Virus record (IMG/VR): IMGVR_UViG_3300035135_000134
Location: 1-25,598 of that record
Source of the DNA: a virus
Lineage: Duplodnaviria > Caudoviricetes
Length of the DNA stretch: 25,598 nucleotides
Direction: 5' to 3' (one strand)
Position numbers and translations under genes: made by a program. Below, piece by piece: positions 4,850 through 24,912 of this stretch. The notes under the pieces are model-generated. The model saw only the letters and a program-made list of their open reading frames with translations, did not search any database and was not told where the DNA came from. Position 1 is the stretch's first letter; each line of letters begins with the position of its first letter.

Positions 4850-5049
4850 TGTATTCATTATGGATTCATGTGGTAGCATTCTTTCAAGTGGTTGTGATGA
4901 ACTGCATTCAACCAGTCAATTGGAAGTATTGCTACCGTGTTGACCAGTGGTTGATACCTGATGTCATTGAAGGTTATCAACTCTGGACTGGTGACAAACA
5001 TCCTTATCAAAATGAGAAGGATTATCTGGAGGGGCAATCCGATAGGTGA
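4849..5049 (+). CDS. Hypothetical protein (66 aa) with hydrophobic N-terminus; 3' end overlaps tRNA
   Basis: TAATG coupling to upstream ORF; Trp/Cys-rich protein-like sequence. Confidence 0.65.
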   Translation: MYSLWIHVVAFFQVVVMNCIQPVNWKYCYRVDQWLIPDVIEGYQLWTGDKHPYQNEKDYLEGQSDR

Positions 5050-5114
5050 CGGAACCTGTCTTGAAAACAGTTGAGGTGTTAAAGCCCTTGGGGGTTCGAC
5101 TCCCCCTCCCTCCG
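5028..5114 (+). tRNA. tRNA-Ser (anticodon UGA), type II, CCA not encoded
   Basis: Acceptor GGAGGGG/TCCCTCC with discriminator G; D stem TCCG/CGGA; anticodon loop CT-TGA-AA; long variable arm; T arm GGGGG-TTCGACT-CCCCC. Confidence 0.92.
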
Positions 5115-5115
5115 T

Positions 5116-5145: not shown

Positions 5146-6643
5146 GATAACAATACCACCATCAGTAAGAGACGCATGGGACGACCTAATTCAAAAAGGT
5201 CTTGCTACTGATGAATATAGTTACTTGGTTTTTGATGTAAAGAACGCAGAAACCGATCCGAAGAAAAAAGTTCAGGTTTACATGAAAGTGTATATACCTG
5301 AGGCAAAGAGAAATATTGCTACTGCCAATGTTAAAGAAGCAATGGAGGCAGCAGGATATCCAGTAGACATTAGAAAGTCTAAGGGTTCCAACATTCCATC
5401 TTTAGATATAAGTGTAGGGTCAGAAAATAATAAAGTAAAAGTCATTCGAGTTGACTTTAAACCAGATAGATCAGCAGGATCAGGTGGTGGCGCAGCAAAG
5501 ACTAAGATCCAAGAGAGTGCTGCTTGTCTTTATAACGCACTTCGATTTCATGTTTACAATAAAGACATGGATCCTGATATGGTAATTACTCAGGATGACC
5601 TTGACAAAGCATCTCAGTATATTGATACTCCAGATGCTACCATGGAAGAGATGATGGGATTTGATCCAGACTGGAGAGCAGTCTTTATGGATGGTGCCAA
5701 TAAACTTTATGCTAAAGTAAGTGGAGGTGACTATCTGTTTGTCCGAGGAGATAAAGAAATTGATGATGGTGTAATCAAAAAAGCATTTGCTAAATGCAAA
5801 ACATCTTTGGAATCAAATTTGCAGAACGAAGACAAGTGGAACCCATCAGATATATGGATGGTCAAAAGGTCTAGAAAATCTGCAGTAATTGCTGAACTAA
5901 CACCATACACAAGAAAGAAAACAGCAACCTCAATTGATGTATTGAATGCTAAACTAGCAGAACTGTTTGAGGCAGGAGATCTGATGGGAGTCTCTTTGAA
6001 AAAGACAGGTGCTTCTGGAACAGTAAAAATTGTTAATGGTGAAACACCAGCACAACGCAAAGCAAACTTAGAAGTTGCATTCGATAAAACTAAAACAATA
6101 AATGAGTTAGTTTACGATAGTGGTAGAAATTATTCTGGTTCGGAAGCAGACAAAAGATATCCTATGGATGTTTACATCTACTATGGACCTAAGTCGTTTG
6201 ATAGAATTCAACTAAGGAACTTTGGTGGTGATAATACAGGAGACTGGAAACTAGAACTCAAAGGCGAGTATGCTGCTATGGGCAAAGTTCAAGGGAGTGT
6301 TGCTAGATTTATCCTACAGAAAACAGGATTCAGTAACATCCCTCAAGAACCAACATGGATAGAAAGTGATCCAAAGCATAGTCAATCAGATAAAATAACA
6401 AAAGAAATATATAATTTACTTAAAGAATTCAACGCAAAGGGATTCGACAAGACAGATGAAGATCAGATGATGGGTGAGATTGCGAGGAAACGCAAATCTT
6501 GGAGATATAGTAAACTATCAGGACTTCGCTTCTTGAAATTTTTGAAAGATCTGAATGGTGAAGCAGATAGAGCAGTGAAAGAATTATATCTTTTTGCTGG
6601 ATCAGCATCAGATCACTCATCAATTTACTACAAGTATTCCTAA
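5144..6643 (+). CDS. Hypothetical protein (499 aa), putative PD-(D/E)xK-superfamily nuclease
   Basis: Long ORF with strong SD. Motif order QES...DKWNPSDIWMV...GVSLKK resembles the E / (P)D / xxK elements of restriction-endonuclease-fold enzymes. Function is inference. Confidence 0.55.
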   Translation: MITIPPSVRDAWDDLIQKGLATDEYSYLVFDVKNAETDPKKKVQVYMKVYIPEAKRNIATANVKEAMEAAGYPVDIRKSKGSNIPSLDISVGSENNKVKVIRVDFKPDRSAGSGGGAAKTKIQESAACLYNALRFHVYNKDMDPDMVITQDDLDKASQYIDTPDATMEEMMGFDPDWRAVFMDGANKLYAKVSGGDYLFVRGDKEIDDGVIKKAFAKCKTSLESNLQNEDKWNPSDIWMVKRSRKSAVIAELTPYTRKKTATSIDVLNAKLAELFEAGDLMGVSLKKTGASGTVKIVNGETPAQRKANLEVAFDKTKTINELVYDSGRNYSGSEADKRYPMDVYIYYGPKSFDRIQLRNFGGDNTGDWKLELKGEYAAMGKVQGSVARFILQKTGFSNIPQEPTWIESDPKHSQSDKITKEIYNLLKEFNAKGFDKTDEDQMMGEIARKRKSWRYSKLSGLRFLKFLKDLNGEADRAVKELYLFAGSASDHSSIYYKYS

Positions 6644-7839
6644 TGTCAAACGTAAAACAACTAAAGCATTTGGAGCATTTAGAAGATGAGATGCTGAACT
6701 ATGGCGTCGATGGATGCATGGCAGCAGTATCTTTTCTCAAAGAACTCCGCAAGATGTTGGGTCAGCAAGATAGTTCTGGTTTCATGCAGACTAAGTGGGA
6801 TGGTGCTCCCTCTGTGATCTGTGGTGAAGATCCTGTGTCTGGCAAATTCTTTGTTGGAACTAAGTCGGTCTTTAATAAGACAGAACCCAAGATATGCTAT
6901 AGTGAAAAAGCAGTTGACAAATTATATGATGGAGATCTAGCAGAGAAACTTAAGTTTGCTCACAGATACTTCAGTCAATTAGGAATCAAAGGTGTGATTC
7001 AGGGAGACCTGATGTTTACTGACAGCACACTAAAGAAAGAAACTGTCAATGGAGAACAACTGTATACCTTCAGACCGAATACTATCACTTATGCTATTCC
7101 TGTAGATCATCCTATTGGAAAGGCAGCAGGTGTAGCAAAGATTGGTGTGGTGTTTCACACTCACTACACTGGAGATGATCTACCTACCATGCAAGCAAGA
7201 GCTGGTGCTAATGTAGAAGGATCTAGAGATGCTCTGGTAATCAAAAATGATACTCCGATGCATCGAGTTGGATTTTCTAAAGCAGAGATGCAAAAGTTTG
7301 ACAACTATATCTCTAAGATTGAACGCATGTGTCAGATCTGCGGACCATTCTTAGATGACCTTGTGGAAAACTTTGGTAATACTGGAGACAAGAAGTTTCA
7401 TATTTCAACATACATCAAGCAGTTCTTCAATGCAGAGATTAGAGAACGTCGTAACATAGGAAACATCGATGAGACTATTAATGCTCTGGTAAACTTCTAT
7501 GATGCTAAGATGCAGAAGGAGTTGGCAAAGATTAAGACGGTTCCTAATAGAGTGAAGAAGTCAAATCTGGTATACCAGAGTGAGAACTATTTGATTGACA
7601 ATGTGTATAAGTTCAAGGCAATGCTTGCTCTGTATAAAGAACTGCAAGATGTCAAGCAAATGGTTATAGATAAACTGGATCATCTTGAAACCTTCAGAAC
7701 CTTTGTGCAGACTGAGAAGGGATACAAAATTACAACTCCTGAAGGATATGTTCTTCACAAGGATGGTAGCATGATCAAGTTTGTCAACAGACTAGAGTTT
7801 GCCTACAACAACTTCACTCTTCAAAAACAATGGCGTTAA
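6643..7839 (+). CDS. ATP-dependent ligase / covalent nucleotidyltransferase-fold protein (RNA-ligase-like, 398 aa)
   Basis: Motif I TKWDG, motif III-like IQGDLMF, motif IV PEGYV, motif V-like MIKFV; TAATG coupling with the upstream gene. Confidence 0.65.
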   Translation: MSNVKQLKHLEHLEDEMLNYGVDGCMAAVSFLKELRKMLGQQDSSGFMQTKWDGAPSVICGEDPVSGKFFVGTKSVFNKTEPKICYSEKAVDKLYDGDLAEKLKFAHRYFSQLGIKGVIQGDLMFTDSTLKKETVNGEQLYTFRPNTITYAIPVDHPIGKAAGVAKIGVVFHTHYTGDDLPTMQARAGANVEGSRDALVIKNDTPMHRVGFSKAEMQKFDNYISKIERMCQICGPFLDDLVENFGNTGDKKFHISTYIKQFFNAEIRERRNIGNIDETINALVNFYDAKMQKELAKIKTVPNRVKKSNLVYQSENYLIDNVYKFKAMLALYKELQDVKQMVIDKLDHLETFRTFVQTEKGYKITTPEGYVLHKDGSMIKFVNRLEFAYNNFTLQKQWR

Positions 7840-8399
7840 ACTGCATCAAATGTTATTTCACCTTTGGTAGGTTTCAACCACCTACTACAGGTCACAAAGA
7901 GAACTTCGATGGGGTGAAACGCATCGCGAGTCAGCATGGACATGACTATAGGATCTATATCTCTCAGTCATTCGATTTGAAGGGCAAGAATCCACTCAAA
8001 CCTGAGCGTAAACTTCACTACATGAACTTGATGTTTCCAGAACATCGTGGTAAAATATATTCAGGACCCAAAGATCCTGTCGCTATCATGCAAGACCTGA
8101 TGATGGCAGGATATAATGAGGTTGTGTTCCTTGTGGGATCTGATAGAGTAAATGCTATGCAGTTCCTGCACAAATACAATGGCAAAGACTTCTCGTTCAG
8201 AAGTATCGAGATTCAATCTTCAGGAAGCAGAGATGCTGACGGAGATACCTTTGCTATCTCTGGCACAAAGATGAGACGTGCAGCACATGCTGGTGACTTC
8301 AAACTTTTCCGCCAGGGCATTCCTAAATCTATGAATGACAAAGATTGTAAGAAGATGATGGATGAGATTAGAGCAAACCTGCCTGCTAATTTTAAATGA
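7830..8399 (+). CDS. Cytidyltransferase-like HxGH nucleotidyltransferase
   Basis: FGRFQPPTTGH (H/TxGH), VGSDR, and C-terminal ISGTKMR (SxTxxR) typical of NMNAT/PPAT/cytidyltransferases. Confidence 0.85.
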   Translation: MALNCIKCYFTFGRFQPPTTGHKENFDGVKRIASQHGHDYRIYISQSFDLKGKNPLKPERKLHYMNLMFPEHRGKIYSGPKDPVAIMQDLMMAGYNEVVFLVGSDRVNAMQFLHKYNGKDFSFRSIEIQSSGSRDADGDTFAISGTKMRRAAHAGDFKLFRQGIPKSMNDKDCKKMMDEIRANLPANFK

Positions 8400-8677
8400 G
8401 AGACTTTAAGAAACTTAGAGAGCAGGCACTGCGGCAGCAGCAGAGACAAGAAGACTTCTTTCAGGAAGGTGATCATGTCATGTCCGCATTGACTGGTGAG
8501 AAGGGCACGATCAAGCGTGTTGGTGGTAACTATGCTATCGTTATCAGTGAGTCTGGAGAGATGTTCCGCTCTTGGATCAAGGATATCCGTCACGTCAATG
8601 TGACAGAATCTATAAATAAAGAGAGGAAACGAAGTATTTTCACTAATGGAACGTCAGAAGCCAACGACAACGCTTAA
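8396..8677 (+). CDS. Hypothetical protein (93 aa), SH3/KOW-like small beta-barrel
   Basis: ATGA overlap with the previous stop; pattern FQEGDHV...TGEKGTIKRVG.NYAIV. Confidence 0.7.
   Translation: MRDFKKLREQALRQQQRQEDFFQEGDHVMSALTGEKGTIKRVGGNYAIVISESGEMFRSWIKDIRHVNVTESINKERKRSIFTNGTSEANDNA
8611..8618 (+). promoter_or_regulatory. T4-type late promoter
   Basis: Exact TATAAATA, 27 nt upstream of ATG 8646. Confidence 0.8.
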
Positions 8678-9413
8678 GCATAATGATGAGTTTTCAAAAG
8701 CTCTAATGGATTCTTACTCCCGTTGGATGGGCGGCGAGGGATTCCAAGGTTCACAAATCCAAGAAGTAGTTGCTCCACCTAAGAAAGAACTAGCAACACC
8801 TGAGCGTGCTGGTGGTGCTGATGCATCTACATCCATCCCCGATCTTTCTGGTAAGGAGGAGAAGAGTGATGAAGGTTCCAAAGATATTTCGGCAAACGCT
8901 GGTGCTCCTGACCCCGCCACTGATCTACGTGTTGGTGCTGGTGTCAAACAGTCACATGGAGCAGAGATTAGAGACACCACGAAGGTGGTTGCGAAAGAGT
9001 CGTGTGACACCTGCTCTTACTGCGGAGGGAAGGGGTGCTCCCGCTGTGAGAAGGAAGATAAGAACACTATGAAGAAAGAGACTGTTGAGTTTGAACTCGA
9101 TGGTGTCACCTATGTCTTTGAGGCAGAGAAGAAAAAAGGACTTGACGGCAAGGCTTGCTGGAAAGGTTATAAGCAGATGGGCACCAAGATGAAGGGTGGC
9201 AAGCGTGTTGATAACTGTGTCAAGGCAGGTTACGAACCAACTGGCGATGAGATCACCGAGAAGAAACTTGATCCCGTAGGTAAGGAAGACAAGGACATCG
9301 ACAACGATGGTGACCACGATAAGTCTGACAAGTATCTCCTAGCACGTCGTAAGAAGGTCTCCAAGATCATCTCTTCTAAGAAGAAGATGAAGGAGGAAAC
9401 TGAAAAAAAGTAA
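8646..9413 (+). CDS. Lys/Glu-rich modular late protein (255 aa), possible internal head protein
   Basis: Follows a late promoter. Contains a CxxCGGKGCxxC Zn-finger-like segment, a CWKGY...NCVK module and a DIDNDGD Ca-binding-like loop. Ends GAA AAA AAG TAA. Confidence 0.8.
   Translation: MERQKPTTTLKHNDEFSKALMDSYSRWMGGEGFQGSQIQEVVAPPKKELATPERAGGADASTSIPDLSGKEEKSDEGSKDISANAGAPDPATDLRVGAGVKQSHGAEIRDTTKVVAKESCDTCSYCGGKGCSRCEKEDKNTMKKETVEFELDGVTYVFEAEKKKGLDGKACWKGYKQMGTKMKGGKRVDNCVKAGYEPTGDEITEKKLDPVGKEDKDIDNDGDHDKSDKYLLARRKKVSKIISSKKKMKEETEKK
9404..9410 (+). other. Candidate -1 programmed ribosomal frameshift site (A AAA AAG)
   Basis: In phase and directly before the 0-frame stop. AGGAGG at 9391-9396. 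The -1 frame opens right after TGA 9401-9403 and runs to 9694. Confidence 0.7.
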
Positions 9414-9694
9414 AGAAGCCAGTGGTTGAGGTGATGCCTGAGATTGATGACGGCGAACCTGAACCCAAACCTACTGGCAAAAAGAAGAAGGTGAAGGAGG
9501 AGACTCTGCATGAGAAATCAGTATCGAAGTCCCAGCAGCGTTTCATGGGTATGGTCCGAGCTGCTCAAAAAGGTGAGGGAGCGTCGTCGCCTGAGGTTGC
9601 CAAAGTTGCTTCCAGCATGAAGAAGAAGGACGTTAAGGACTTCGCTTCTACTAAGCATAAAGGACTACCTGACAAAAAGAAAGAGAAGAAATAA
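9410..9694 (+). CDS. -1 frame extension of the 8646 ORF (or separate small ORF from GTG 9422); DUF3008-like basic module
   Basis: KSVSKSQQRFMGMV...SMKKKDVKDFASTKHKGLP resembles DUF3008 as recalled; same Lys-rich composition as the upstream ORF. Confidence 0.65.
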   Translation, partial: VKKPVVEVMPEIDDGEPEPKPTGKKKKVKEETLHEKSVSKSQQRFMGMVRAAQKGEGASSPEVAKVASSMKKKDVKDFASTKHKGLPDKKKEKK

Positions 9695-9697
9695 ATA
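9690..9697 (+). promoter_or_regulatory. T4-type late promoter
   Basis: AATAAATA, 24 nt upstream of ATG 9722. Confidence 0.65.
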
Positions 9698-9721: not shown

Positions 9722-9934
9722 ATGCTCGCTTTTCTACTCCCACTCGCATCAAAAATTGTAAGTGATGCTGTCGCTAAGATCCCCGATAACGAGGAACTCG
9801 GTGAGAAACTAGTTGAACTCTGCCTAGTTATTCTACGCAAAGCAGTCACACTAACCAAGACCACTATGGATGATGAACTCCTTGCGGTTGTCGAAAAGGC
9901 AATCCTAGCAAGAGAAGAAGAAGCATCTGAGTGA
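9722..9934 (+). CDS. Small helical hypothetical protein (70 aa)
   Basis: ORF bracketed by a late promoter and an intrinsic terminator. Confidence 0.8.
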   Translation: MLAFLLPLASKIVSDAVAKIPDNEELGEKLVELCLVILRKAVTLTKTTMDDELLAVVEKAILAREEEASE

Positions 9935-9938
9935 TACC

Positions 9939-9962
9939 AGGGGACATTAGTCCCCTTTTTTT
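9939..9962 (+). terminator. Rho-independent terminator
   Basis: GGGGAC-ATTA-GTCCCC stem-loop followed by 7 T. Confidence 0.88.
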
Positions 9963-23767: not shown

Positions 23768-23876
23768 CGTAGTCGTCTGAATCGTAGTAGTCATTTTCAC
23801 CTTTTCGGAACCCGAAATAGATGGTGGCACATACAAACGGTAGTGCTCCCCAAAGTAAGACATCAGCGAACGTCAT
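23745..23876 (-). CDS. Small single-TM peptide (43 aa) between gnd and zwf, not in ORF track
   Basis: Manual translation MTFADVLLWGALPFVCATIYFGFRKGENDYYDSDDYDGNGCAH. Confidence 0.7.
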   Translation of the reverse strand: MTFADVLLWGALPFVCATIYFGFRKGENDYYDSDDYDGNGCAH

Positions 23877-24912
23877 GACCACCAAACATAGCACGCATTC
23901 CGTTTAGGACTTTGTTTGCGAAGCGTCCAAGTCTTCGGGACTCAAATCTTGAGTAGAGAGCAGTAGTAATAACAGGGGCTGGAACACCGAGATCCACAGC
24001 ACTGTGAACAGTCCAACGACCCTCACCACTGTCTGATACTCCTCCATCGAACTTGCTAAGCTCTCTATCGCTGCGTAATACATCAGCGGTAAGGTCAAGT
24101 AACCAACTGCCAACCACGCTACCACGACGCCAACACTCAGCCACTTTAGCAACGTCAATATCGTAGCAATAGTCTTCTGGGTTATCCATTGGAGCAACTT
24201 CAGCATCACCTGCAGCAACGTATGCTGCCCCAGCATTTGCTTCATGCAGGATATTAAATCCTTCTGCGTATGCTTGCATGATCCCATACTCAACTCCGTT
24301 GTGAACCATCTTCACAAAGTGACCTGCTCCTGGACCACCTGCGTAGATCCAACCGAACTCTTCTGGATACCAAGTGTAGTTTCTGTCACCTGTTCTTGGG
24401 GCAGCACCAATGCCTGGCGCGAGGGCGTCGAATAGAGGGCGGCAGACATCGACTGCCGAGCTTCCGCCACCAACCATGAGGCAGAATCCACGCTCCAGAC
24501 CATAGACACCACCACTAGTGCCACAGTCAAGATACGCGATGCCCAGTTTTGCACAACGCTCTGCTCTCTGCCTACTGTCCTTAAAATTGCTATTGCCATG
24601 ATCAATAATAATATCTCCTTCACTACAATATCGTAGTAACTCATCGAGAGTATCCTCCACTGTTTCTGCTGGGACTACCATCATGAAAATGCCAGGTTGA
24701 AAAGCGTCGTCCCCGAAGACTCCTCTACCACTGTGAACTACTTGAACAAGGCTTTCCACAGAAGTGGTATATCCACTGATATAACCCTTGTCATATTGTG
24801 CTTCAGCTTTTTGAACATTGTTACGATAACCATGAACTTCGTGTCCTGCTGCGATTAGACGACGGGACATTCCTTCTCCCATTCGTCCTAGTCCGATCAT
24901 TCCTACTTTCAT
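23863..24912 (-). CDS. gnd: 6-phosphogluconate dehydrogenase (short type)
   Basis: GLGRMG, IIDHGNS, GTSGG, GAGHFVKMVHNGVEYG, DSGEGRW, MRAMFGGH. Confidence 0.97.
   Translation of the reverse strand: MKVGMIGLGRMGEGMSRRLIAAGHEVHGYRNNVQKAEAQYDKGYISGYTTSVESLVQVVHSGRGVFGDDAFQPGIFMMVVPAETVEDTLDELLRYCSEGDIIIDHGNSNFKDSRQRAERCAKLGIAYLDCGTSGGVYGLERGFCLMVGGGSSAVDVCRPLFDALAPGIGAAPRTGDRNYTWYPEEFGWIYAGGPGAGHFVKMVHNGVEYGIMQAYAEGFNILHEANAGAAYVAAGDAEVAPMDNPEDYCYDIDVAKVAECWRRGSVVGSWLLDLTADVLRSDRELSKFDGGVSDSGEGRWTVHSAVDLGVPAPVITTALYSRFESRRLGRFANKVLNGMRAMFGGHDVR

Follow-up and report, generated by a model that had tools for sequence, protein, structure and literature searches.

How does a T4-like cyanophage read a late gene that ends on a slippery heptamer, with the stop codon adjoining the heptamer and the -1 frame open beyond it? 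The locus lies in the window, by which we mean the whole stretch of viral DNA analysed here (25,598 nucleotides). The window is a segment of a T4-like cyanomyovirus. Read from the sequence, its genes include those for DNA polymerase, uvsX, a helicase, a primase, nrdA/B, zwf and gnd. A homologue search with the first of the two frames, ORF1, gave 50 phage records, almost all of them with Synechococcus, Prochlorococcus or cyanophage in the name. In relatives the -1 extension is annotated as a separate gene (p143 in S-PM2). The features of the locus are these:

8611-8618, + strand: late promoter of T4 type, TATAAATA, upstream of ORF1
8646-9413, + strand: ORF1, Lys/Glu-rich modular protein of 255 aa (phrog_4359; homologue of S-PM2 p142), the predicted short product
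9267-9356, + strand: conserved module LDPVGKEDKDIDNDGDHDKSDKYL..RRKK (DNDG block), with invariant alignment columns, used as anchor
9391-9396, + strand: SD-like AGGAGG, 7 nt before the heptamer (8 nt from GGAG)
9401-9403, + strand: TGA closing the -1 frame just 5' of the heptamer
9404-9410, + strand: slippery heptamer A AAA AAG, in phase with ORF1
9411-9413, + strand: TAA stop of ORF1 (GTA, Val, in the -1 frame)
9410-9694, + strand: -1 frame extension of 94 aa, VKKPVVEVMP... (phrog_30268; S-PM2 p143)
9418-9478, + strand: predicted 3' stimulatory stem-loop, -24.5 kcal/mol
9524-9679, + strand: DUF3008 (PF11450) module inside the extension (Pfam 28.7 bits, cut-off 24)
9691-9697, + strand: ATAAATA preceding the phrog_402 gene
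9722-9934, + strand: next gene, phrog_402 by family match
9939-9956, + strand: predicted terminator-like hairpin closing the unit

ORF1 is neighboured by a cytidyltransferase-like gene, the phrog_402 gene and a gene for an Ig-like head protein. In the window, a DUF6267 gene and the cytidyltransferase-like gene lie directly 5' (6643-8399, +). The frame at 8396-8677 (+) carries the label ribonucleotide reductase alpha/NrdB in PHROGs and GenBank; its product, with the N-terminus MRDFKKLRE, aligns with positions 210-276 of the fused cytidyltransferase family phrog_395, and it is likely a misannotated split domain. Further away, 5027-5115 (+) is called tRNA-Ser(TGA) by ARAGORN and tRNA-Sec by Rfam, and weak tRNA matches occupy the syntenic position in S-PM2 (102852-102938, where the record has no tRNA annotation), S-RIM32 and S-H9-2. 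A pattern-seeded search with the gnd-like gene at 23863-24912 (-) gave mostly actinobacterial genomes among its best 80 genome matches (47-52% identity), and no cyanobacterial genome among these 80.

The junction in the window

The codons at 9390-9413 read AAG GAG GAA ACT GAA AAA AAG TAA, with an A7 run at 9403-9409. The geometry described in the earlier note was borne out: the heptamer is in phase and abuts the stop, AGGAGG ends 7 nt upstream of it, and the -1 frame, shut by the TGA at 9401-9403, is open from the heptamer to the TAA at 9692-9694. Recomputed from the frames, the predicted products have the lengths given there, 255 aa and 349 aa, the latter being the predicted transframe fusion with the junction peptide ETEKKVKKPVVEVMP. 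AAAAAAG occurs 11 times in the window against 6.7 expected from shuffling. Of the 80 Lys-Lys pairs in the 29 window genes scored, none but that of the heptamer is encoded by an in-phase A AAA AAR. A search for an Rfam family at the junction site found none.

The A7 run was checked on contigs, the raw-read depth there being only about 1-2 and uninformative. An assembly error (a true A8), which the earlier note had named as a possible refutation, was rejected, since contigs from two DNA runs and from one RNA run pass through the A7 without a gap and the same junction is present in nine cultured phages. One of 120 near homologues, P0096, ends in ...EAEKSEELQWLR, as if one A of the run were missing; this is probably an error or a rare mutant.

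The same fusion could arise without ribosomal slippage if RNA polymerase slipped on the A7 and added an A. Such slippage substitutes for ribosomal frameshifting in Thermus dnaX and in many IS elements (PMC5009743), and the 52 homologous junctions of the GAA type described below have an A7, as does the window. However, five of the 57 homologous junctions have only A6 (GGA, TCA or GCA before AAA AAG) and still keep a codon-phased heptamer, and polymerase slippage needs neither an SD nor a stem at ribosome distance. The RNA-run contig also crosses the A7 without a gap, although contigs hide rare variants. We therefore hold this explanation to be very improbable.

Conservation and phylogeny of the junction

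Homologous junctions came from the window and 392 further loci. The DNDG block served as anchor; it lies upstream of the junction and is independent of it. Of the 274 anchors, 39 were followed by no stop inside the locus, and anchors in 49 loci ran on for more than 45 codons, these being other genes that carry the DNDG module. With junctions of less than 120 nt past the stop dropped and duplicates merged, 122 distinct junctions were obtained: 57 of the G|TRA type, 60 ATGA overlaps and five of neither type. The ratio of 57 to 60 is no population estimate, because most loci came from best-hit searches with window proteins.

The heptamer and the adjoining stop, whose conservation the earlier note had proposed as a check, are found together in every one of the 57 G|TRA junctions (the frameshift class), always as in-phase A AAA AAG, while A AAA AAR is found in 0 of the 60 ATGA junctions. 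The first codon of the heptamer always ends in A and its amino acid varies (GAA 52, TCA 2, GGA 2, GCA 1). In the bodies of the anchored ORFs, A AAA AAG/AAR accounts for one of 1162 internal Lys-Lys pairs, and in frameshift-class ORF1, AAA AAG is used at only 50 of 602 such pairs. Codon invariance alone is not proof, since three other Lys/Glu codons of the anchor block are invariant as well (AAG 57/57, AAG 56/56, GAA 47/47). Nor is in-phase A AAA AAG forbidden in these phages, given 92 internal cases in 1159 ORFs of the fetched loci, which overlap and include some host-like genes.

The stop context is GTGA in 30 junctions and GTAA in 27, the window and S-PM2 being among the latter; TAG does not occur. 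Inside the frameshift clade, ten changes between TAA and TGA were counted, at least eight of them forced by strong branches, and never a change to TAG. With either stop the -1 frame reads Val at this codon, while a GTG start is lost in about half of the junctions; no such start exists in the 27 with GTAA.

Nine cultured phages belong to the frameshift class (S-PM2, Syn1, S-RIM32, S-CAM1, S-CAM3, S-H9-2, Sf-CH11, Sf-FP1 and Sf-FR1) and four to the ATGA class (S-WAM2, S-RSM4, S-CAM4 and Sf-CH1b). Cutting out the junction and using the 103 of 117 rows complete at the 5' end, we obtained an unrooted ORF1 tree in which the frameshift class forms a single clade (50 versus 53 rows, SH-aLRT 99). The two classes are thus the two sides of one branch, implying one origin or one loss, and the 57 junctions are not 57 independent origins; clustered at 70% ORF1 identity, the class falls into only six groups. 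Repeated switching between the classes, as a flanking-gene tree that mixes them might suggest, was rejected because the ORF1 tree separates them. The mixing likely reflects recombination between genes, which would be frequent around ORF1. Both classes share the promoter arrangement: ATAAATA lies within 80 nt 5' of ORF1 in 48/49 frameshift-class and 52/52 ATGA-class loci, and never inside ORF1. The late promoter consensus is given as TATAAAT in PMC3037559.

In the ATGA class, 33 of the 60 junctions end in AAA AAA (for example, locus L008 at 2107), and no A ever precedes these two codons, as though a slippery A AAA AAA were being avoided.

The predicted stem-loop, the SD-like sequence and decoding

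In the stem-loop predicted at 9418-9478, the basal stem pairs GCCAGU (9418-9423) with ACUGGC (9473-9478) and begins 7 nt past the heptamer. When 70-75 nt after the heptamer are folded, z is -4.6 to -5.4, and none of 200 shuffles is as stable. The earlier note had seen no strong 3' hairpin, a statement that has to be withdrawn; about 70 nt are needed to see it, the 50-nt fold giving z -1.0 versus -4.6 at 70 nt. Across the junctions, with 40 shuffles each, the downstream 80-nt fold has z at or below -2 in 51/57 frameshift-class junctions (the other six lying above -2), versus 12/60 ATGA junctions and 6/57 upstream controls. The first stem starts at nt 7-8 past the heptamer in 51 of the 57. The sequences forming it are visibly unrelated, with 14 different 5-mers at that place; examples are GCCAG/CUGGC, GGCAC/GUGCC, AGGCUUG/CAAGCCU and GGAGCACC/GGUGCUCC, among others.

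Within the subgroup of the window, GCCAG/CUGGC is the same in all 16 aligned members chosen, across indels and over an encoded residue that varies between T, A, P and S; invariant pairs carry no covariation signal. Compensatory changes were found in a second subgroup, where 91% of cells are paired and 12 are changed on both sides, which 0 of 500 shuffles matched, the slid controls giving 32-60% paired; the 17 sequences were chosen as a subgroup and the structure was taken from one member, which favours the structure. Two loci, L083 (3421-3433) and L086 (3406-3418), have the junction A AAA AAG CAA TRA, in which the heptamer is kept and the stop comes one codon later; their stem still starts at nt 7 past the heptamer (z -2.8 and -1.8), and DUF3008 has moved inside ORF1.

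The invariant heptamer and stop, the exchange of TAA and TGA and the positioned 3' stem-loop lend support, at the level of sequence, to the dnaX-type reading of the earlier note. We consider it highly probable that ORF1 ends in a programmed -1 frameshift of this type, with predicted products of 255 and 349 aa.

Could the two frames instead be separate, translationally coupled genes, as the GenBank annotation has it, with re-initiation at the GTGA or at an internal GTG or ATG of the VEVMP frame? The sister clade does couple its genes through ATGA (60/122), GTGA is present in 30/57 frameshift-class junctions, annotations of the p143 type begin at an internal GTG or ATG, all 57 tails have an in-frame ATG within 23 codons (at codon 8-10 in 50), and an SD lies upstream. 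Against this, 27/57 junctions, including those of the window and S-PM2, have GTAA, and the eight or more stop flips would be normal for a Val codon but not for a start codon. The distance from the SD to the GTG is 13-17 nt, and the internal candidate starts are paired in the predicted stem (mean unpaired 0.38, 0.20 and 0.23 at 9422, 9431 and 9434, respectively). Coupled genes, moreover, would require no A AAA ahead of the final codon and no stem at a fixed distance. We judge this explanation to be unlikely, while low-level independent initiation could coexist with frameshifting.

It is still less probable, indeed barely credible, that the junction has decayed or is a neutral leftover, with too little of the tail produced to be of use. 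The tails are highly variable in content and length (27-170 aa, some only about 30 aa), with DUF3008 in only 5/57 of the frameshift class, yet the VEVMP motif is present in all 57, the frames stay open and stems have repeatedly arisen anew at an unchanged distance.

The contribution of the SD-like sequence is less clear. GGAG is found within 25 nt upstream of the heptamer in 45/57 junctions, at 8 nt in 18, 11 nt in 24, 14 nt in two and 5 nt in one, and is absent in 12; as background, G|GAG occurs at 66/1527 Glu codons in ORF1 bodies. Pairing to an anti-SD motif reaches -5 kcal/mol or lower in 47/57 frameshift junctions, 0/60 ATGA junctions and 23% of random windows. The spacing for -1 stimulation is given as 9-14 nt in PMC5009743, a range that includes the 11 or 14 nt of 26/57 junctions. 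The upstream SD claimed for the window is thus present, but at 7-8 nt it falls short of this range and its role there is uncertain.

The shiftiness of A_AAA_AAG has been linked to a single tRNA-Lys (PMC5009743), and the CTT(Lys) anticodon is listed as absent from the cyanobacteria studied in PMC3152331, so that marine cyanobacteria would lack tRNA-Lys(CUU). In 22 loci from five phage genomes scanned, two Lys tRNAs were found, both TTT (S-PM2 and S-H9-2); a scan with a short anticodon-loop pattern gave counts at chance level. We propose that a fraction of ribosomes very likely slips back one base at the heptamer, and infer that two tRNA-Lys(UUU) on AAA AAG would re-pair to AAA AAA. The stem at the mRNA entry tunnel, together with the waiting stop codon, probably slows the ribosome, and the SD-like sequence may contribute. 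One likely late mRNA would then give the 255-aa protein and a 349-aa protein with the VEVMP and DUF3008 tail, so that frameshifting would set the amount of the tail and tie it to ORF1. In the ATGA clade, the tail would be a coupled separate gene with a capsid-targeting-like start of its own.

With the cassettes of E. coli dnaX (tau/gamma) and the IS3 family, the junction shares A_AAA_AAG, the 5' SD-like sequence and the 3' stem-loop (PMC5009743), as well as, probably, a host with one tRNA-Lys (PMC5009743, PMC3152331). Unlike in those cassettes, the zero-frame stop adjoins the site, the shift makes the longer product, the SD of the window is 7-8 nt away, the stem is long and irregular, and the gene is a phage late gene; the reversed layout, in which the shift gives the longer product, is mentioned for some dnaX candidates (PMC5009743). 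The -1 frameshift of csoS2 likewise gives two lengths (CsoS2A/B) of a scaffold-like protein inside a shell, but there the shift shortens the product, no SD is reported, and the protein is unrelated (PMC5009743). The tail-assembly-chaperone frameshift of lambda (gpG/gpGT) and the capsid-extension frameshifts of T7 (gp10A/B) and the A2 head protein are similar in that one gene gives a late protein in a short and a C-terminally extended form; unlike these, our locus has no chaperone, tape-measure or capsid homology. A test for a tail assembly chaperone gave no chaperone family match and no tape-measure neighbour, and chaperone frameshifting is reportedly absent from T4-like phages (PMC10885494, citing Vladimirov 2022).

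The tail, its modules and a possible role in the head

ORF1 and the tail are Lys/Glu-rich strings of short mobile modules. DUF3008 is found inside ORF1 in three loci (L060, L083 and L086) and opens separate genes in S-SM2, S-SSM7, S-WAM1 and P-TIM40. Among 120 longer homologues, 64 carry DNDG and then DUF3008 in one open frame, so that the order of modules in the predicted fusion is a natural one. We met no close homologue in which ORF1 and tail are fused in frame, VE(V/I)MP being found in none of the best 120 near-length homologues; fused ORF1/tail modules occur in distant modular proteins only. The searches found no solved-structure match, and ORF1 matched no named Atlas family.

Both products are late and charged, as are T4 IPI-III, gp67, gp68 and Alt. 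The T4 protease gp21 cuts after L/I-X-E, and a 10-residue leader, in which residues 4 and 7 are key, targets proteins to the capsid (PMC9026906, PMC9958956). Unlike in the T4 internal and core head proteins, ORF1 has no leader (its N-terminus is MERQKP), and no sequence homology to them was found. Hydrophobic-X-Glu sites number four in ORF1 and four in the tail, counted without a control, and several lie at module borders (IQE, VFE, ITE, MKE, VKE, LHE). We know of no frameshift in T4 internal proteins. All 60 ATGA-class tails have their own start and begin with MK(T/S)F.(Q/E)(F/L)REE-like residues of the MKTFKQLREE type, a pattern drawn from these same sequences; no MK(T/S)F-type leader occurs in the first 40 aa of the 57 frameshift-class tails. 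These ATGA-class starts resemble the T4 capsid-targeting leader.

As for virion data, ORF92 (DNDG module) and ORF93 (DUF3008) of S-SCSM1 are labelled virion proteins. The S-SCSM1 study identified 45 virion proteins by MS and warned of carry-over (PMC9602691); a search of its supplement brought up no peptide table. For S-PM2 p142 and p143, the supplement of PMC3037559 leaves the proteomics column empty and records no detection, as would also be expected of core proteins if these undergo digestion. In virions of S-SM1, T4-GC119 has been detected, but the part of the S-SM1 protein that is shown has no DUF3008 at its start; for that reason, this detection was not counted as support.

We give even chances to a role of both products in the prohead core or head interior, with cleavage after Glu by a gp21-type protease. 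More tentatively, and with some doubt, frameshifting might replace the capsid-targeting leader, the tail entering the prohead only when fused to ORF1 and being released by the protease, with the stem setting the ratio.

S-PM2 has a second in-phase A AAA AAG TAA (S-PM2 116220; locus L189, 1501-1580). It is preceded by 243 open codons and followed by a lysozyme-like -1 frame of 163 codons and a predicted stem from nt 6 (z -2.25).

The cassette is of the classical dnaX/IS type, very probably programmed, and the locus is not described in the literature that we found. Our literature searches, with subscription papers outside their scope, gave no paper on a frameshift in ORF1; the word "cyanophage" is absent from the 300,000 characters searched of PMC5009743, cyanophage and Synechococcus from the available text of PMC10885494, and "frameshift" from that of PMC3037559 and PMC10690425. 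If right, the prediction changes how a late gene pair should be annotated in nine or more cultured cyanomyoviruses, the model phage S-PM2 among them, and T4-like phages would join the users of -1 recoding, though frameshifting for the chaperone is said to be absent there. The clade offers a natural panel, testable with reporters, in which a single slippery site comes with numerous independent stems and with two spacings of the SD, and its ATGA sister clade would have met the same expression problem with a stop-start overlap. The locus also provides a handle on the abundant and unexplained modular proteins of cyanophages, namely DUF3008 and its partners. If the replacement of the leader by frameshifting were true then, together with the lysin site of S-PM2, -1 recoding would be a general tool for late-gene stoichiometry in these cyanophages.
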